The notes under the pieces: model-generated | What the model was told of the DNA's origin: nothing | The model's input: the letters and a program-made list of their open reading frames with translations, nothing else | Database searches by the model: none | Shown here: piece after piece, positions 6,377 to 36,355 of the stretch | Layout of the letters: every line of letters begins with the position of its first letter | How positions within the stretch are numbered: the first letter of the stretch is position 1 | Made by a program: the position numbers and the translations under genes | IMG/VR virus record: IMGVR_UViG_3300031994_000001 | Span: 311,799-375,798 of that record | Reading direction: 5' to 3' (one strand) | DNA length: 64,000 nt | Source of the DNA: a virus | Lineage: Duplodnaviria; Heunggongvirae; Uroviricota; Caudoviricetes

Positions 6377-6925
6377 TTAGTCTTTGTTGAAGTATATACC
6401 GTTGTACTTGGAATCAGAACCCTTGTTGATTCTCACATAGCCTTTCGGCTTCTTTGTAACCAAGAATGTGACGGAAGTGTCAACCATAACGTGAGCGGTG
6501 TTCATAAACAGTCTGTTCACGAGCATCTTCACATAGTTCTTTGAACGGTCAACGAGAGCAAACGGAATCTTGTAGTCCTTGCCTCTGAAAGCGATGTCAA
6601 GCATAACACTAACCCTTTCCTCATCGTTTCTGTTTCTCACAACGGACTTGCCGCATTTTTTGGAGCGCATCTTGATTCCATTGATTTCCCAATTCACATA
6701 GTCGCCGTCAACCTCGTATTTGTCGCACATAATGGACGACACCGTTCCGTTGCCGCTGTCGAACTTGGCAACGAAATCACCGATTTCGGGAACGCTTATC
6801 ATTTCAAGATAGCCAACCCTCGTTAGTTCATCGGAGGACTTGTGGCGTTTCACACGCTTCTTTTCGCCACCGTTCTCATAAACAAGTTTCTCGCAGATAA
6901 AATTATCGTATGTCTTTATTTCCAT
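6377..6925 (-). CDS. RimK-associated retropepsin-like ('putative ATP-dependent zinc') protease
   Basis: AKFDSGNG..S catalytic-type motif, EER..V.LDI, F.LVDRS....MLVNR.FM; late promoter at 6944-6951. Confidence 0.65.
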   Translation of the reverse strand: MEIKTYDNFICEKLVYENGGEKKRVKRHKSSDELTRVGYLEMISVPEIGDFVAKFDSGNGTVSSIMCDKYEVDGDYVNWEINGIKMRSKKCGKSVVRNRNDEERVSVMLDIAFRGKDYKIPFALVDRSKNYVKMLVNRLFMNTAHVMVDTSVTFLVTKKPKGYVRINKGSDSKYNGIYFNKD

Positions 6926-6993
6926 AATTCAAATATGTCATAATATTTATATCGGCTAACTTGCCGCCATTGAGACATTACCGACAATCTCGG

Positions 6994-14093: not shown

Positions 14094-15101
14094 ATGGAAA
14101 TACTCAAATCAGAACAATACATAAACGAGAAACTGAACATCAAGCCCGTCACGAAAGATAGGATTGATAGCATATATGCTGAAATGTATAAAGACCTTGC
14201 TAAAAAATACAACCTTGTTTGGAACAAAAGTACAAAAAGGTTTGACTGTGACGGTGACGTGGAAATTGATGCAGACGATATTGTTGACGGAAAATTACCT
14301 TTGCCATTCGGCGTAATAAAAGGCAACTTCTACTGTTCTGGACGCACTGACAAAAAAGTATTCGATGACCCACTTGCATACACGGGCAAAGAACTTACAA
14401 CACTCGAAAACGCGCCAACAGAAGTTGGAAAAACATTTGATTGTTCATATAATAAACTGACAACACTTGAAGGCGCACCAAAGAAAGTTGGTATGGATTT
14501 TTATTGCCCATATAATTTACTAACATCTCTTAAAGGTTCTTCAGAATATGTCGGACACGATTTTAGTTGCTATGGGAATAAACTGACAACACTTGAAGGC
14601 GCACCAAAGAAAGTAGAATACAGTTTTTATTGTAGTAATAACAAACTAACATCGCTAAAAGGCGCACCTCAAAGATTAAAAGTTGATTTTGATTGCAGTC
14701 ACAACAATCTGACAACACTCGAAGGCGCACCGTCAAAAATAGGATGTATGGAAGATTGCACATTTGATTGCAGTTATAACCAACTAACATCACTTGAACA
14801 CGCACCTTGGGGCGGTAATGGTGGAATAAGATATTTTATTTGTGACAACAACAAATTAACAACACTCGAAGGAGCGTGTAATTACATAGAACGTGATTTC
14901 AGTTGCAAAAACAATGAACTCAAATCCCTTGAAGGCGCACCACAAACAGTTGGAAGAAATTTTGATTGTTCAAATAACAACCTAAAAACACTTGACATAC
15001 ATCCCGAAATTGTTGAAGGCTCATTCACTTGTAAAAACAACAAAGATTTAGTGTTGCCGAAAAGAAAACCGAGATGGATAAAAGACAAATTTATAAAATA
15101 A
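14094..15101 (+). CDS. LRR-like repeat protein (21-aa GAPxxVGxxFxCSxNxLTxLE repeats) with shared leader
   Basis: MEILKSEQYINE-KLNIKPVTKDRI; about 10 repeats. Confidence 0.88.
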   Translation: MEILKSEQYINEKLNIKPVTKDRIDSIYAEMYKDLAKKYNLVWNKSTKRFDCDGDVEIDADDIVDGKLPLPFGVIKGNFYCSGRTDKKVFDDPLAYTGKELTTLENAPTEVGKTFDCSYNKLTTLEGAPKKVGMDFYCPYNLLTSLKGSSEYVGHDFSCYGNKLTTLEGAPKKVEYSFYCSNNKLTSLKGAPQRLKVDFDCSHNNLTTLEGAPSKIGCMEDCTFDCSYNQLTSLEHAPWGGNGGIRYFICDNNKLTTLEGACNYIERDFSCKNNELKSLEGAPQTVGRNFDCSNNNLKTLDIHPEIVEGSFTCKNNKDLVLPKRKPRWIKDKFIK

Positions 15102-22166: not shown

Positions 22167-22622
22167 TTATATTTTTCCAAAATAGATTTTTTCCAACTGT
22201 TTGTCATCCAAATCAAAATCCTCTTTTACACGGGCAATGTAATCTTCAATTACCGTTTCATATTTCGGGTCACTTTTGTAATACACAAACGCCTCCCAAA
22301 GCGTAGCGAACACCTTGACTTTCGTGAGTTTCTGTTTCGAACGGGTCTTGTGCTTTTTCAATTGTTCAGCCATAGACAATTTATCCCACGAGTCAAACCT
22401 CTTGCTTGTGTCATCGCAAGCCTTTGTGAAATTAAGCCAGCACTCCTTTGAAAAACCGAGTTTCATTATATTGAAGACCACCTGCTCCTCACCGACAGTC
22501 CTTTTTCCCGTCCAAAAATGTTTTTTACCCAAAACATCGCCCATCTTGTTAAGCCTATCCTTGGACACGGGCTGTATGTTCAGTTTCTCCGAAACAAATC
22601 CTCTGTATGATAACACTTTCAT
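22167..22622 (-). CDS. hypothetical protein with shared leader
   Basis: MKVLSYRGFVSE-KLNIQPVSKDRL; TATAAATA at 22641-22648 (minus). Confidence 0.8.
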   Translation of the reverse strand: MKVLSYRGFVSEKLNIQPVSKDRLNKMGDVLGKKHFWTGKRTVGEEQVVFNIMKLGFSKECWLNFTKACDDTSKRFDSWDKLSMAEQLKKHKTRSKQKLTKVKVFATLWEAFVYYKSDPKYETVIEDYIARVKEDFDLDDKQLEKIYFGKI

Positions 22623-29778: not shown

Positions 29779-31623
29779 TTATCTTATCAATGCCATTATC
29801 TTGTCTATCTGACCGTTCAGTTTGTTTTGAACTTTCTTTCCCTTTTCGTTTCTATCCCTATAACTGCCTTTAGGTTTTGACGGTGTTGACGAATCCGTCT
29901 CATTCGGGTCTTTGACACCGCCCTTAACGTGCATAGGTATATTCTTCCTGCCTTCGGCAATCTGTTTGTAATACTGCTCCAATTCCGCTGTGTTCGGATT
30001 GTCTTTGTCAACATTGCCGAGATACGGAGTGTGGAAGTAACGACCCCTGCCCGCATTGAACATTGATTCAATGTCACCCGCGTCACGGGGCTTTCCGTGT
30101 TTGAGTTGGCAGGTGAACGCAACATTAACGGGGAAGTCGTCATATCCAAGACCCTCGCCCATTTGCATTTCGATTTGGTTGCAGACCATATTGCCCATCA
30201 TAGCGATTGGGTTGAGCGGGTTTCCGATTGTAACGTGCCACATACCCGTAGGCTCGCCCGAAAGCAATGCGTTTGCAGGTTGGGTGACACCGAGTTTACC
30301 GAGTTTTCCGTTGATAAGACCGCCGATAATGTTCTGCAACCCCCCCTTGATGACATTCTTCGCCAAGTTAGCCCATTCCTCAAGGCTCTGCGGGAACTCA
30401 CCGCCGTTCCAACTCTCAATCTGACCCATAACGTGGTCAACAAGACTCTTGCCGTATGCGGCGTAGTCTCCACGGGCGAAAGCGGCAAGGTCGCCAGGCT
30501 GCTTGCCGTAGCCACCGCCGTTGCCATAGTAACGTGTAGCACCGCCCCACCAAGTACCCGTGTTAGTACCCATAAGAATCATATTGCCGATAATGTCAAG
30601 CATAGCGATTTTAGGGTTCACATATTGGAGAGACTTCAACTCGTACTCGAATTTGAGATTGAAGTTCTGCTCAAAGTTCAGACCAATGTCACGGATGTTG
30701 GTTTTCATCACCGTATCAACAGGTCCCTGCGTGTACTTGGAGTATTTGTCCCACGGGTTTATCTGCGCAGCCTGCGCAGCAATGCTCATTTGTTGGGGTG
30801 AATAGTTGTGACCCGAAAGCATACTGAAGAACGTAGCACCCATACCCGCAGCAACCGCGCTGTCGCCTTGTGAATCGTTATGCCATTTAGCACCGATACC
30901 GAAACTTGACGCACCTGGCGTACCGCCCGTAATGGTCTGAATCTCCGAGGTCTGCTCTTTCCAATTCGTACCCCAAGTGAATTTGAGTATATCTTCCATC
31001 TTATTACCCGCAAACTCCGACATATATGTCGTTGCCGTTGCGATAGGAAGTATTGCTGAACGCACATCCATATCGGCGTGTACGTCTTCGGGATAGGCGA
31101 GAACAAACGGAATGTCCGTACAAGGCATACCATAACGCCTCAATGTGATAAGGTAGTTGGGCGGGATATGCTTGTAGTATTTGTTGTAAATGAAGTCTTG
31201 TATCTTGTATCTGCCTGCCTTTATGTTCTCGAAAGCGTCAATGATATTCTTGTATGTGGGTTCTGCGTTAGACCACATAACACCGCCACGGGCAAGACCC
31301 GTATCGAAATTCTTGGTGAGTACGGTTTCGTCACACACACGCATAACGCCGAGCATACCCATATAATCCATAAGCATATGCCTTGCGAATATGCTGAACG
31401 GGGCATAGAGGCGGTCAGTCCTTATGTCATAAAAATCCTTTGAAACGACCTTGCCGTTCTCGTCCTTTGTGTCCATTGTGGTATATGTGTCACCCACAAC
31501 AACACCGCCGTCAGCACCCTTTGACACCATCCAAGTCCAAGTAGGCGCAGACGTACCCGAAACCTCCCACACTTCTGAATAGGGGTTGAACATATCAGCA
31601 TAGGCTTTATCAATGGTACTCAT
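29779..31623 (-). CDS. probable virion structural protein (baseplate/tube-fold, gp48-like?)
   Basis: GLNFEQNFNLKFEYEL...VTIGNPLNP...DDFP..V.F.C.L; co-transcribed with the gp4-like gene; function is inference. Confidence 0.45.
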   Translation of the reverse strand: MSTIDKAYADMFNPYSEVWEVSGTSAPTWTWMVSKGADGGVVVGDTYTTMDTKDENGKVVSKDFYDIRTDRLYAPFSIFARHMLMDYMGMLGVMRVCDETVLTKNFDTGLARGGVMWSNAEPTYKNIIDAFENIKAGRYKIQDFIYNKYYKHIPPNYLITLRRYGMPCTDIPFVLAYPEDVHADMDVRSAILPIATATTYMSEFAGNKMEDILKFTWGTNWKEQTSEIQTITGGTPGASSFGIGAKWHNDSQGDSAVAAGMGATFFSMLSGHNYSPQQMSIAAQAAQINPWDKYSKYTQGPVDTVMKTNIRDIGLNFEQNFNLKFEYELKSLQYVNPKIAMLDIIGNMILMGTNTGTWWGGATRYYGNGGGYGKQPGDLAAFARGDYAAYGKSLVDHVMGQIESWNGGEFPQSLEEWANLAKNVIKGGLQNIIGGLINGKLGKLGVTQPANALLSGEPTGMWHVTIGNPLNPIAMMGNMVCNQIEMQMGEGLGYDDFPVNVAFTCQLKHGKPRDAGDIESMFNAGRGRYFHTPYLGNVDKDNPNTAELEQYYKQIAEGRKNIPMHVKGGVKDPNETDSSTPSKPKGSYRDRNEKGKKVQNKLNGQIDKIMALIR

Positions 31624-31639
31624 TCTCTCTCAATATATT

Positions 31640-32125
31640 CTAAAACGACAGTTTGGAATCCTCCGTTATGAACTTGTATTCCATACCGTGCAAATCGCAA
31701 TAGTTGCGGCAAGCCTTCGCCTTCTCCATATTCTTTATGTAGGTCTTGGCTTGGTATCTGTAATTCTCCAACGCTTTCTCGGTTTCGCGTTTCGGTTTCT
31801 TCGGCTCGGTCAAATCCTTCTTCGGCTTGACCTCCGCGATTATCTTCCTAATGCCGTTTTTCGTCTTGTACTCAAAATAGAAGTCGGGAAAATACTCGTG
31901 GTACTTTTCATCGGTGATACTGAAATACGAAATCCGTATGCACTCGCTGCCCCATCTGACAACGGTGGCACACTCATCGAGGAACTTACAAACCTTGTAC
32001 TCCCAACTTGAACGGTAGATAATTGGCATCTTACCGCAATACTTGCTCGGAAACAGAGGATTGTAGATTCCCTGCCTAAACGGACTGTTCTTCGTGGTTC
32101 TCGGTTTTAACGATTTAATGTCCAT
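31640..32125 (-). CDS. head completion nuclease (T4 gp4-like)
   Basis: IIYRSSWE, RWGSE, YFPDF, EVKP, N.EK..A...YC...G..Y..ITE; TATAAATA at 32144-32151. Confidence 0.88.
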   Translation of the reverse strand: MDIKSLKPRTTKNSPFRQGIYNPLFPSKYCGKMPIIYRSSWEYKVCKFLDECATVVRWGSECIRISYFSITDEKYHEYFPDFYFEYKTKNGIRKIIAEVKPKKDLTEPKKPKRETEKALENYRYQAKTYIKNMEKAKACRNYCDLHGMEYKFITEDSKLSF

Positions 32126-32565: not shown

Positions 32566-33147
32566 TTAAAATCTATCCTTTTCTTTTTGATATTCGTCCA
32601 TAAACGCAGAAACTGCGGCATCCTTGATTTCGTCAAGGATTTTGTTGTACTCGTCAATGCCAAGTTTGTCGTCAAGTTCGTCAGCGATATCGCTGCCTGC
32701 ATTCGCGCCCTCGTCCCAACTGTCTGAAACAACTTCACGCAAGGTGTCGTCATTCACGTTGTAATCTTCGAGCATATTAACAAACTCTTTCATTTTCTTC
32801 GTGTACTTGACATCAATGTCGTAATCGTCATTCGACATATCGCTCCAATGCAGGTTCACAAGCATTTCGACAGTGCAGGAATCAAGTTCTTCATCCTCAT
32901 AATCCGTCTTTTTGTTAATGTCAAAATAGAATTTGAGGTACATTTCAAAGTTGGTGTTCTTGTTTTTATCCAACGCCTTAAAATCTTCAAGAGTACCCTT
33001 GTGTTCTCTGTCGAAATAGTACCAATGCTCGCCGTCCCACTTGCAGTCAGCACTCACGGTGTCCAAGTCAAGCACATTGGTCTCTGTGCGGCTGATAAAC
33101 ATAGCCGCCTCCTTTATGTACTCGGTGCTTTTAAGTATCTTCGTCAT
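32566..33147 (-). CDS. acidic hypothetical protein
   Basis: likely start MTKILKSTEYIKE-A (first half of the shared leader only). Confidence 0.7.
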   Translation of the reverse strand: MTKILKSTEYIKEAAMFISRTETNVLDLDTVSADCKWDGEHWYYFDREHKGTLEDFKALDKNKNTNFEMYLKFYFDINKKTDYEDEELDSCTVEMLVNLHWSDMSNDDYDIDVKYTKKMKEFVNMLEDYNVNDDTLREVVSDSWDEGANAGSDIADELDDKLGIDEYNKILDEIKDAAVSAFMDEYQKEKDRF

Positions 33148-33161
33148 ATTTTTTATTATGT

Positions 33162-33656
33162 TCAATCATTAAATTTAGGTTGTCTTGACTTATCATTTTC
33201 CAAAGGTGTTCCGTCAAAACAATTTTGATGTAAATCAACATTAGAAACATCCCAAGAAGAAAGATTCCCGTCAAATGCAGAATCAGTAAACATAAACGAC
33301 ATATCAATAAGATTTGACACATTCCATTTAGAAATGTCACCATTGAAATCCGATTCATAGAACATTTCAGTCATATCTGTAACATTTGAGACATCCCAAA
33401 GCGATATGTCTCCATTAAATTCAGATTTACTGAATATTCCAATCATATCAGTTATGGCAGAAACGTCAATGTTATTCAGATTGCAGTTACAACCTTCTTC
33501 ATCAATGCGCTCTTTCACCAATTCAATAAGTTCATCCCTTGTTTTCGGAAAATATTTGTAAATAAGACCCTTTCCTTTTGAAAGTTGTTCTTTTGATATT
33601 GGTTGTATTCCCATTTTTTCAAATATAAACCTTTCCGAATTAAGTATCTTCGTCAT
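33162..33656 (-). CDS. BspA/DUF285-type repeat protein with shared leader
   Basis: MTKILNSERFIFE-KMGIQPISKEQL; FNGDISxWDVSNVTDMxxMF repeats. Confidence 0.85.
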   Translation of the reverse strand: MTKILNSERFIFEKMGIQPISKEQLSKGKGLIYKYFPKTRDELIELVKERIDEEGCNCNLNNIDVSAITDMIGIFSKSEFNGDISLWDVSNVTDMTEMFYESDFNGDISKWNVSNLIDMSFMFTDSAFDGNLSSWDVSNVDLHQNCFDGTPLENDKSRQPKFND

Positions 33657-33681
33657 ATTATATATGTTTTTTATATAAGTC

Positions 33682-35118
33682 CTAATTGTCGAAATATCCC
33701 TCCACGTCTTCGCCTTTCCAAACATACAGCGTCTCTTGGTAGAATATCTTGACGCTTGCATATCCGTCACTGCCTATTTTCGCACGCTTTGTCTCGTCTT
33801 CGTAAACAACATCGGAATCGGGCTGCACCGAATATGTCGAAGAGTTTTTCGACCCCTTTGTCAACTTTTCGCCAATGCGCACAAGCCAAAGCCAACTTTT
33901 TGTCCTTTTGGTAATCTCATAGAAATAAACCCTGCCGAGATAAGTGCAATACACAATATCACCAACACGATAGATTTTACGGGAGACATCAGTCTTGGCA
34001 AGCCGTTCTTTCGTAACGGGCTGTATTGTCAGTTTCTCGGAAACATACCTATTGCCTCTGCTCCAAATAAGATTGGCATTACTTTTTGAAAAAATTGAAA
34101 CAAATTCTTTTATAAGAAAATTGTTTTCATTATCCCTGCATTTTAGATTAGGAATCCGATAAACATTCATTATGTCACATATACCAACACTCTTTATATC
34201 TTTCAGTCTATTTGCATTAGATTGAAAAACTTTTCTTGGAACATTCCAATTCAAATTTGAATCATAATCTTCCAAAAATGTGTATGTTTCCCAAGCAACC
34301 GAATACACAGTATTTGCAAAACCATCGCCAAAACCTATGAATACACCACTTTCGTTTTTATCGCCATCATAATATGTTTTAGTGTATTTTGCAAGCAAAG
34401 ATGTATAATCAGAAAATGCGACATATAAAAATGTTCTATTGGCATCCCCTCTGAATGTCACAACGTCACCCGTTTGGAAATTATTACGCATATCATCCGA
34501 AGAAACTATGTTGCGGTTTTTAAGAGAATTTTTCGTAACGGGCTGTATTGTCAGTTTCTCGGAAACGAAGTTGACTTTCCTGCTCCAAACAACAACCGCC
34601 CTTTTCTTTTGAAATTCAAAAGTATCCTCGTCAAAAAGCAAAGTGCCGTCATCGTTTCCGCTTCTGTTACATTTGAAATCCAACATTCTGTAAACGCGGA
34701 GAATATTACCTACATATCCGCCGCTCCAATCCAATTTGGAATTATAGTCCTGCAAAAACGTATAGTTGTTCCAATCGAAAGAAGTCTTTCCGTTTTCGTC
34801 AATAAGGAAAACCACAAAGACACCCATCTTCTGTGTGTCTTTTCTATCAAAATTCATACCCGTATGCCAATCCAAATAATCATAATCCGATGGAGCAATA
34901 TACATAAGTGTCTGCAATTCGGTGTATTCACCGCTGCGCTCATCAATTACCGAGCCGAATGTGACAACATCGCCCGTTTGGAAATTATCCTTCATTTCAT
35001 CTGATGAATTATAATGGACTATGCCCTTTTTCACCATCCTCTCCTTTGTCACGGGCTGTATGGATAATTTTTCCAAGACATTATTGGTAAACTCTGCAAA
35101 CTTAAACACTTTTGCCAT
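33682..35118 (-). CDS. three-module protein, each module starting with E-KL(S/T)IQPVTK (putative polyprotein)
   Basis: VLE-KLSIQPVTKERM, FVSE-KLTIQPVTKNSL, YVSE-KLTIQPVTKERL; modules 1 and 2 share NFQTGDVVTF; TATAAATA at 35136-35143. Confidence 0.85.
   Translation of the reverse strand: MAKVFKFAEFTNNVLEKLSIQPVTKERMVKKGIVHYNSSDEMKDNFQTGDVVTFGSVIDERSGEYTELQTLMYIAPSDYDYLDWHTGMNFDRKDTQKMGVFVVFLIDENGKTSFDWNNYTFLQDYNSKLDWSGGYVGNILRVYRMLDFKCNRSGNDDGTLLFDEDTFEFQKKRAVVVWSRKVNFVSEKLTIQPVTKNSLKNRNIVSSDDMRNNFQTGDVVTFRGDANRTFLYVAFSDYTSLLAKYTKTYYDGDKNESGVFIGFGDGFANTVYSVAWETYTFLEDYDSNLNWNVPRKVFQSNANRLKDIKSVGICDIMNVYRIPNLKCRDNENNFLIKEFVSIFSKSNANLIWSRGNRYVSEKLTIQPVTKERLAKTDVSRKIYRVGDIVYCTYLGRVYFYEITKRTKSWLWLVRIGEKLTKGSKNSSTYSVQPDSDVVYEDETKRAKIGSDGYASVKIFYQETLYVWKGEDVEGYFDN
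34009..34044. repeat. 36-nt direct repeat, copy 1 (module junction)
   Basis: tttcgtaacgggctgtattgtcagtttctcggaaac, identical to 34531-34566. Confidence 0.9.
34531..34566. repeat. 36-nt direct repeat, copy 2 (module junction)
   Basis: identical to 34009-34044. Confidence 0.9.
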
Positions 35119-35138
35119 AGGTCGGTTTATTTCTATAT

Positions 35139-35636
35139 TTATACACGCTCAAACAGCGGAACAAGCAAACTCGCGTCAACATTATTGAAAAAATCAATGT
35201 CAAACGGCTGACTTGGAAGTTTCTCGTATCGGTATATGCCGTCAACAAAAAGCGCACCGCCAGTTGATTGCATACGGTCGTCTCTGAAAATATCCATAGA
35301 CGTATAGCCCGAACCAATATCACCGCCACCCTTGTATTTGCAACTAACAAACACACCTTCCATAAAACTGTTTTCTGTGATATGACCTATTCTAACAATA
35401 TCATTGTACTTGTACCTCATTATGTCATCGTGGGAAATGTAAACGAACAGATATTCCATTTTGCGCGAATTGCTCGTTTTCGACATAGAAAATATGTCAC
35501 CCGTCCGAACCATAGATTTCCAACCTTCCTTATCCTCTATCTTTCGGAATGCCACCTCCCTATAAAGCCTATCGGAAGTAACAGGCTGTATGTTCAGTTT
35601 CTCTGATATGTATTGTTCGGATTTGAGTATTTCCAT
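35139..35636 (-). CDS. hypothetical protein with shared leader, related to modules 1/2 of 33682..35118
   Basis: MEILKSEQYISE-KLNIQPVTSDRL; TGD....YI...D....GVFV....YR pattern. Confidence 0.8.
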   Translation of the reverse strand: MEILKSEQYISEKLNIQPVTSDRLYREVAFRKIEDKEGWKSMVRTGDIFSMSKTSNSRKMEYLFVYISHDDIMRYKYNDIVRIGHITENSFMEGVFVSCKYKGGGDIGSGYTSMDIFRDDRMQSTGGALFVDGIYRYEKLPSQPFDIDFFNNVDASLLVPLFERV

Positions 35637-35650
35637 AAGTTATTAAAATA

Positions 35651-36355
35651 TTATAATTTAAACTTGCCGTGCAACCAATTTGGTTTTATTTTCGGCAAAA
35701 CAAGATTTGGATTATTCTTATAATAAAAATCGCCGTTCACATTATTTGGAGCATAATCAAAGGATTTTAACTGATTATGTTCACAATGAACATCTCCGCC
35801 GATTTCAAGTGGTAAATAATTAAAAGATTTTACGCTATTATATGCAAACACAAAATCTCCACCGACTTTCTGCGGTGCGCCTTTTAATGATTCCAAACCA
35901 GTGCTGTTGGCAAAAAAACCGCCTCCTACTTCCTGCGGTGCGCCTTCAAGTGTTTTCAATGTATTTACATAACATCGAAATGCTCCTCCTACTTTCTGCG
36001 GTGCGCCTTTGAGTGACGTGAGTTTATTACCACTGCAATCAAAGTACCCTCCGACTTCCTGCGGTGCGCCTTCAAGATTTATTAAATTATTCGTCTGACA
36101 TACAAAATTCCCTTTAACACGACCAAATCTGATGACAAGGACTCCATCAGACACAACATTTTCATCAATTTCAACACTTTCGTCACAATCATAGCATTTC
36201 GTATGCTTATTCCATTTAAGACTGTGGTCTTCTATGAATTTTTTAACCTTATTGTCAACCGAAGGCTCGTTTGTCCATTCAGCAAGCCTATTTTTTGAAA
36301 CGGGCTGTATGTTCAGTTTTTCGCCAATATATTGTTCGGATTTGAGTATTTTCAT
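35651..36355 (-). CDS. LRR-like 21-aa GAP-repeat protein with shared leader
   Basis: MKILKSEQYIGE-KLNIQPVSKNRL; GAPQ(E/K)VGGxF repeats; C-cap LVLPK.KP.W as in 14094. Confidence 0.88.
   Translation of the reverse strand: MKILKSEQYIGEKLNIQPVSKNRLAEWTNEPSVDNKVKKFIEDHSLKWNKHTKCYDCDESVEIDENVVSDGVLVIRFGRVKGNFVCQTNNLINLEGAPQEVGGYFDCSGNKLTSLKGAPQKVGGAFRCYVNTLKTLEGAPQEVGGGFFANSTGLESLKGAPQKVGGDFVFAYNSVKSFNYLPLEIGGDVHCEHNQLKSFDYAPNNVNGDFYYKNNPNLVLPKIKPNWLHGKFKL

Follow-up and report, generated by a model that had tools for sequence, protein, structure and literature searches.

The window, i.e., the whole 64,000-nt stretch of phage DNA that was analyzed, lies in a 144-kb IMG/VR record judged to be about half complete. 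The phage encodes a contractile tail sheath. We describe here an open reading frame (ORF) of 478 amino acids in this window, in which three modules, each carrying a copy of a common leader, are joined in one frame. The motif KL[ST]IQPVTK starts at residues 17, 188 and 362 of this ORF with a Glu directly before each, and splitting the protein after these Glu residues gives modules of 187, 174 and 117 residues. The initial annotation had read E-KL(S/T)IQPVTK three times in one ORF, and we placed the sites at residues 16/17, 187/188 and 361/362. A protein identical to the 478-aa ORF was found by protein search on a 413-kb contig. The Met-proximal part of the first leader resembles the capsid targeting sequence (CTS) of phage T4, which is the textbook route for loading proteins that are co-injected with DNA and also an engineering tool. 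The ORF and its parts are listed below (↓, predicted cut; GC3, GC content at third codon positions; pLDDT, predicted local distance difference test; P0003 and P0004, related proteins; L002, a related locus).

33682..35118, minus strand, 478-aa ORF in which three leader-tagged modules share one frame, from the ORF list and motif positions
35136..35143, minus strand, T4-type late-promoter-like box TATAAATA, 25 nt upstream of the ATG
35071..35118, minus strand, Met-proximal, CTS-like segment of the first leader, MAKVFKFAEFTNNVLE, with the predicted cut site VLE↓K at its end
35035..35070, minus strand, post-Glu 12-residue tag (12-mer), copy 1, KLSIQPVTKERM
34579..35034, minus strand, body of module 1, an A-type 'TGD[IV]' domain (GC3 0.48; AlphaFold pLDDT 80-93)
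34522..34578, minus strand, junction 1, KVNFVSE↓KLTIQPVTKNSL, predicted cut between residues 187 and 188
34531..34566, strand not applicable, 36-nt exact repeat at the module 1/2 junction
34057..34521, minus strand, body of module 2, AT-rich (GC3 0.26) and paralogous to module 1; P0003 and P0004 lack it
34000..34056, minus strand, junction 2, GNRYVSE↓KLTIQPVTKERL, predicted cut between residues 361 and 362
34009..34044, strand not applicable, 36-nt exact repeat at the module 2/3 junction
33685..33999, minus strand, body of module 3, an all-beta domain that is a free-standing 133-aa gene in L002 (6574-6975)

Both internal leader copies keep [FY]VSE and the 12-mer and lack the Met-proximal part. 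The early reading of a retained VSE site and tag without the Met-proximal segment is therefore correct, as both junctions read [FY]VSE↓KL. No in-frame ATG, GTG or TTG was present in the 10 codons preceding either internal site. On re-comparison, positions 34009-34044 were identical to 34531-34566 over all 36 nt, as had been noted. When the 19 leader copies in the 144-kb record were compared in all 171 pairings, the same 12 codons showed a mean identity of 23.8/36 (standard deviation 3.2), and the next best pair after the two internal junctions reached 31/36 nt. For copies that encode the same peptide, all synonymous sites would be identical with a probability of approximately 1e-4. That is, because the 19 leader copies vary freely at synonymous sites, the 36-nt identity is greater than expected from shared coding; identical leader nucleotides occur only at the two junctions of the 478-aa ORF. 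The same variation at synonymous sites ruled out the leader as a general RNA or DNA signal under nucleotide selection.

Modules 1 and 2 are diverged paralogs, as initially described, with 35% identity over 189 aa (E 7e-25). Module 3 is unrelated to them beyond the tag and the following GD[IV] strand, to which its match is limited. When GC was computed per module, module 2 had a GC of 0.33 and a GC3 of 0.26, compared with 0.40 and 0.48 for module 1 and 0.44 and 0.50 for module 3; i.e., module 2 is more AT-rich than its flanks. The genome mean GC3 was 0.53 (131 long ORFs), and 4% of 174-codon windows were as low as module 2. Judged by its base composition, module 2 is foreign.

AlphaFold predicted three folded domains in the 478-aa protein, with pLDDT >90 for module 3 and <50 in the three leaders (residues 1-30, 187-203 and 356-379). 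This model, with [FY]VSE↓KL at both junctions, points to independently folding units joined by site-bearing linkers. No Pfam or PHROG family covers the 478-aa protein; an E1_FCCH match (20.6 bits vs. a cut-off of 29.5) and a phrog_38601 match (E 0.008) were dismissed. Foldseek returned no match at E <= 0.001 against PDB, and its matches against BFVD were uncharacterised phage proteins only. Module 1 was also modeled separately (pLDDT 80, predicted template modeling score 0.80). In a VIA-wide comparison of this module with PDB, the best Z was 4.5 (3kw0, root-mean-square deviation 4.7, 107 aligned), which is within noise. Atlas structure comparison gave weak SH3-barrel, NlpC/P60 and L19-like rows with a template modeling score of at most 0.51. 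Weak rows resembling an NlpC/P60 or Peptidase_C92-like permuted papain fold recurred at values within noise, and no invariant Cys or His was found across the module 1/2 family alignment, in which the invariant or near-invariant residues are G20 and G70 together with D21, D49 and R115.

The leader is not confined to this ORF. Its 19 copies in 144 kb stand ahead of LRR, DUF285, APOBEC-like and unnamed domains; these cargo bodies are unrelated, have only the leader in common and lie in a locus that is variable compared with L002 and other strains. Genome-wide, the leaders read M[KE]IL..[EQ][YF][IV]xE↓K. The N-terminal leader of the 478-aa ORF, MAKVFKFAEFTNNVLE↓K, fits a T4-type CTS, i.e., approximately 10-19 residues ending in aliphatic-x-Glu, and no hydrophobic or lipobox features were seen in the leader. 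The best-conserved part is the 12-mer after the Glu (KLxIQPVTKxRL), which no Pfam or PHROG family covers. In addition, late-promoter-like boxes lie at -24 to -27 of four other leader genes, and 46 such boxes were observed genome-wide vs. about 12 expected.

Some genes carry only one half of the leader. The Met-proximal T4-CTS-like half without the KLNIQPV 12-mer was seen at 32566-33147 of the window (minus strand) and at G000:C1:30182-30724 and 31093-31668; examples are MTKILKSTEYIKE↓A and MKILSFDEFKSINE↓S, which end in aliphatic-x-Glu. Because such genes exist, the two halves of the leader are separable. One further ORF of the record has an internal leader copy: a 279-aa ORF outside the window (G000:C1:111044-111883, plus strand) reads ..FFKEHVNE↓KLGIQPVTKDRL and is a candidate two-module polyprotein.

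A gp21-family prohead protease is encoded approximately 19 kb before the window start. Its 647-aa ORF (G000:C1:19981-21924, minus strand) matches Peptidase_S77 (PF03420) with an E value of 2.5e-14, above the cut-off, and contains LGELDHP and HISSR motifs, in line with a catalytic His and Ser. In the C-terminal half of this ORF, a 14-residue unit of the form ..(H/N)(S/N)DYLAE↓(K/Q)L.. is repeated in tandem about 12 times, each copy bearing a gp21-type site. One repeat of this scaffold tail reads DYLAEKLNQNF, where a leader reads QYISEKLNIQP, which suggests that the leader mimics a scaffold repeat. In T4, the CTS is MKTYQEFIAE and internal proteins are cut once after it (PMC8442874); residues 8 and 10 of the CTS control processing and residues 4 and 7 targeting (PMC9026906), and the scaffold is cut into small fragments (PMC5694885).

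We gathered 23 distinct internal junctions from relatives using the post-Glu core pattern, in which the Glu was not required. All 23 had Glu at P1, and 20 had V, L, I or M at P3; no conservation was seen at P4 and P5. Since P1 and P3 are kept, the internal copies appear to keep the processing determinants and to drop the targeting determinants, as if the first leader carried the whole chain. The protease, the scaffold repeats, the P1/P3 conservation, the linkers in the AlphaFold model and the lack of internal start codons agree with one another, and from these five lines we infer that the protein is cleaved at its leaders.

Our favored explanation, to which we assign a probability of roughly 60%, is that the ORF encodes a late-expressed cargo polyprotein of a giant T4-like phage, whose leader-tagged domains are fused, cut and packaged and whose leader DNA is a point of exchange. 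Domains that are found elsewhere as separate leader-tagged genes are joined here, three in one frame, with each junction keeping the leader core, i.e., a hydrophobic-x-Glu site of the gp21 type followed by KLxIQPVTKxRL. First, the Met-proximal T4-CTS-like segment would bring the entire chain into the prohead's scaffold core. The S77 protease would then cut after E16, E187 and E361, giving products of about 171, 174 and 117 residues, each with the 12-mer at its N-terminus. The released products would remain in the head and later pass into the host together with the DNA. As DNA, the repeated leader core would provide homology for the insertion, deletion and exchange of modules.

Several points weigh against this explanation. 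Both the presence of the 478-aa protein in the virion and its cutting are predictions from sequence. The low pLDDT of the linkers may partly reflect the shallow alignment of 27 rows. A cargo function is unsupported by structure, because the module folds match nothing known (best Z 4.5). A search with PF07068 (Gp23) found no major capsid protein, a canonical substrate of the protease, in the 144-kb record. Finally, conservation of 12 residues after the Glu is not explained by cleavage if the protease needs only P3 and P1. The 12-mer may extend the recognition site of the protease, bind the scaffold or act on the mature proteins; its purpose may also be unrelated to processing.

Two other explanations were weighed. 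In the first, the protein would be a three-domain chain that is unprocessed, or processed only at its N-terminus, and the internal leader cores would be relics of fusion that now serve as flexible linkers or repeated binding motifs, e.g., for multivalent docking to the scaffold or to another partner, with the protein acting as a single chain. The most conserved part of the leader is the post-Glu 12-mer, which a T4-type protease should not need, the linkers are predicted to be flexible and cleavage is itself a prediction, all of which would suit such a chain. However, relic linkers would not keep the P1 Glu at every one of the 23 junctions and an aliphatic P3 at 20 of them while P4 and P5 drift, and the same site occurs about 12 times in the protease's own scaffold tail. 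We regard an uncut chain as rather unlikely. In the second, the leader would be an address for a destination other than the capsid (a virion compartment, membrane or secretion, or a phage-made compartment) or for another protease or chaperone, in which case that other system would process or sort the polyprotein. The 12-mer is without a counterpart in the T4 CTS and belongs to no Pfam or PHROG family, and packaging, too, is a prediction. This explanation nevertheless seems quite improbable to us, as the Met-proximal part resembles MKTYQEFIAE and ends in a gp21-type site, the S77 protease is intact and has matching scaffold repeats, a T4-type late promoter box precedes the gene, and hydrophobic or lipobox leader features are missing.

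Next, we compared the ORF with its relatives. A single-protein search of viral contigs and a search of metagenome contigs with alignment A1 gave no related loci, and tblastn against isolate phage genomes gave no match. Scanning viral contigs with alignment A1 identified L002, a locus on a 106-kb IMG/VR contig. Variant breakpoints were assessed at the protein level for P0003, P0004 and P0005 and at the nucleotide level for L002 only. The number of modules was one in L002, two in P0003, P0004 and P0005, three in the window and in P0002, and four in P0012 (610 aa); i.e., the variation in module number that had been predicted turned up as 1-, 2-, 3- and 4-module forms in protein searches and locus comparison. 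P0022, P0025 and P0027 (454-526 aa) have three modules each, and P0013, P0016 and others (about 130 aa) are free-standing homologs of module 3 with full leaders.

P0002 (445 aa, three modules) showed 97%, 76% and 99% identity to modules 1, 2 and 3 of the window, respectively. P0003 (304 aa) was 97% identical to the window protein apart from a single clean gap of exactly the 174-aa module 2, which leaves the junction WSRKVNFVSEKLTIQPVTKERLAKTD. Breakpoints at the 36-mer had been predicted, and at the protein level this gap is exactly the unit between the two 36-mers; the junction would be the outcome expected of a crossover inside the 36-mer. P0004 (304 aa) has the same architecture as P0003 and is 82% identical to the window protein. 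In P0005 (292 aa), a module-2-like domain follows the full N-terminal leader and precedes module 3; it corresponds to the single gene of L002 into whose leader a module and a second leader core have been inserted. Thus, the variants all end in module 3 (M3), being M3 in L002, A+M3 in P0003 and P0004, B'+M3 in P0005 and A+B+M3 in the window and P0002.

L002 is syntenic with the window, its flanking genes being 64%, 80% and 93% identical to the 558-, 161- and 614-aa genes of the window. Module 3 is a separate 133-aa gene there (6574-6975), 80% identical and with its own Met-proximal leader, and nucleotide homology between L002 and the window at module 3 begins at the S-E-K-L codons. ORF 5001-6011 of L002 consists of an A-type module fused to the homolog of a free-standing 165-aa gene of the window. 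Because of this arrangement, the same domains can be said to alternate between free genes and in-frame modules. The seams between free and fused forms were always within the leader core in the window, L002 and the protein relatives. These seams and the variant module numbers support the early proposal that the leader DNA is a point of module gain and loss; on this proposal, module content differs between related phages because the leader core serves as exchange homology. The relatives also bear on the uncut chain: tandem domains of the same type in P0012, P0025 and P0027 look like ordinary repeat proteins, whereas modules exist as separate tagged genes in syntenic loci, and linkage is therefore not needed.

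For module 2, a gain in the window lineage is favored from its foreign GC3, its 76% identity compared with 97-99% in the flanks, and its absence from two lineages. However, loss by recombination between the two 36-mers would yield the same P0003 sequence, and the direction could be either way.

Runs with this DNA came from sheep, goat, bovine and pig gut. A 36-nt exact repeat is able to confuse short-read assemblers, and the Logan contigs break at both 36-mers; on this basis, the three-module ORF could be a mis-assembly across the repeat, or else a decaying pseudogene fusion. The evidence makes this very improbable. The independent ENA contig carrying P0002 has the same architecture, the three modules were present at equal depth in Logan contigs from goat (X3, X4) and bovine (X8) runs of other studies, and one sheep RNA-library contig runs through the module 1/2 junction (34423-34885) with zero differences; because of these results, the three-module ORF is not a mis-assembly, although an assembly artefact at the repeat had been raised at the outset. 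Furthermore, the reading frame is uninterrupted, and different strains share 76-99% identity in the modules. As the 36-mer is longer than the assembly word, Logan contigs cannot bridge the repeat or show a module 1-module 3 joint, and the absence of that joint in the Logan contigs of four runs is uninformative. The RNA-library contigs (X11) covered parts of modules 1 and 2 only and could represent DNA carry-over; they were not counted as expression.

The goat run X4 also differed inside module 2: the center of the module (34185-34387, 201 nt) was replaced by 186 unrelated letters, whereas the module 2 ends were nearly identical. This change in length agrees with the shorter, diverged center of module 2 in P0002. 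The center of module 2 is either a local hypervariable patch or the site of a mosaic exchange inside one module.

A more speculative extension of the cargo polyprotein, which we put forward with considerable doubt, is that the leader has a dual purpose, acting as a protein address and as an in-frame DNA cassette junction, analogous to an integron array for injected effectors. Its first half would imitate a scaffold repeat (DYLAEKLN vs. QYISEKLN) and so take cargo to the core and the protease, while the retained 12-mer would be a second address after maturation (tail exit, localization or timed turnover in the host). A junction of 36-60 nt would let the population assemble, reorder and discard modules, with co-packaging at a fixed ratio from one promoter.

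Two leader-tagged genes flank the ORF.

35139..35636, minus strand, free-standing leader-tagged gene with a D-type module, whose L002 homolog is fused behind an A-type module
33162..33656, minus strand, leader-tagged DUF285 gene, which forms a whole-gene cassette missing from other strains

The first had been called a free-standing relative of the modules. The relationship is present but distant: identity to module 1 was 30% over 53 aa, and identity to the A-type module of a related phage was 27% over 147 aa (E 5e-8). The variable stretch of L002 lacks the DUF285 gene, and contigs from bovine X8 (depth about 147) and goat X4 join 33149 to 33659, skipping the whole gene. A 26-nt repeat with 92% identity (33131-33156 and 33640-33665) is located at the breakpoints; it covers sequence ahead of the ATG and the initial leader codons (M-T-K-I-L) at the two gene starts. 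The genes of lowest GC3 include leader-tagged ones, namely two LRR genes and the DUF285 gene (14094-15098, 33165-33761 and 35654-36355), at 0.29-0.31 vs. the mean of 0.53; the DUF285 gene is AT-rich with a GC3 of 0.29. Recent import of cargo bodies behind a leader that was already resident would fit the low GC3 of leader-tagged cargo. A leader-tagged solenoid gene at 35651-36355 (minus strand) contains four 63-nt tandem units at 35859-36106, which are 61-76% identical and encode GAPQ(E/K)VGG.F.C..N.L.SL; this gene is without a counterpart in L002. Elsewhere in the window, a leader-tagged protein of 151 aa (22167-22622, minus strand) has a borderline APOBEC-like match (PF05240, E 6.9e-5, 23.2 vs. 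a cut-off of 23.6 bits) and could be a packaged nucleic-acid deaminase.

The locus suggests that the CTS is extended in a clade of giant ruminant-gut phages, in which several cargo domains stand behind one address with the predicted site of the head protease between them, and the natural variants with one to four modules mark the tag DNA as a point of module exchange. If the predicted cleavage is true, the locus would provide a compact rule by which injected effectors could be found in uncultured jumbo phages, a naturally occurring design for packaging several proteins together at a fixed ratio, and a defined peptide with a directly testable function after maturation.

As in IPI, IPII, IPIII and Alt of T4, a short leader with aromatics ends in aliphatic-x-Glu and is paired with a protease of the gp21 family. 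Also as in the T4 internal proteins, the small cargo is unrelated and fast-evolving with only the leader in common, expression would be late, and the scaffold carries the same kind of cut site, here judged from sequence. However, the T4 internal proteins are single-module and cut once (PMC8442874), whereas up to four modules are chained here, each with a predicted site. In addition, the conserved 12-residue block follows the Glu and would stay on each mature product, and T4 has no counterpart to it.

In the polymorphic ip loci of T-even phages, the exchange elements are promoter and stem-loop sequences that flank whole genes, according to the portion of PMC2839356 dealing with Repoila et al. 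1994. Compared with that account, the present locus is similar in being a hypervariable stretch between conserved genes in which cargo with a common leader is exchanged at short shared sequences, and differs in that the exchange homology would lie inside the coding leader. Because of this position, recombination would also build and dismantle in-frame fusions. In the giant phages phiKZ (gp175), 201phi2-1 and SPN3US (gp245), diverged gp21 homologs cut many head proteins after Glu, and the ejection proteins form paralog families whose number differs from phage to phage (PMC5694885, PMC9026906). There, the additional sites are located in propeptides, which are removed, and the motif is S/A/G-x-E rather than the aliphatic-x-E found here. 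Chains of individually tagged cargo domains are not described in this literature on phiKZ-type processing (PMC5694885, PMC9026906), and the term polyprotein was absent from the papers that a literature search on the prohead protease and ejection proteins returned.

The locus is similar to viral polyproteins in that one ORF encodes folded domains separated by flexible linkers with a repeated site, without internal start codons. It is unlike them in that the modules would be accessory cargo, their number is polymorphic in close strains, and processing would occur inside the prohead. The locus differs from the known systems in that tagged cargo domains are chained, a 12-mer follows the predicted cut site, and the exchange homology lies in the coding leader.

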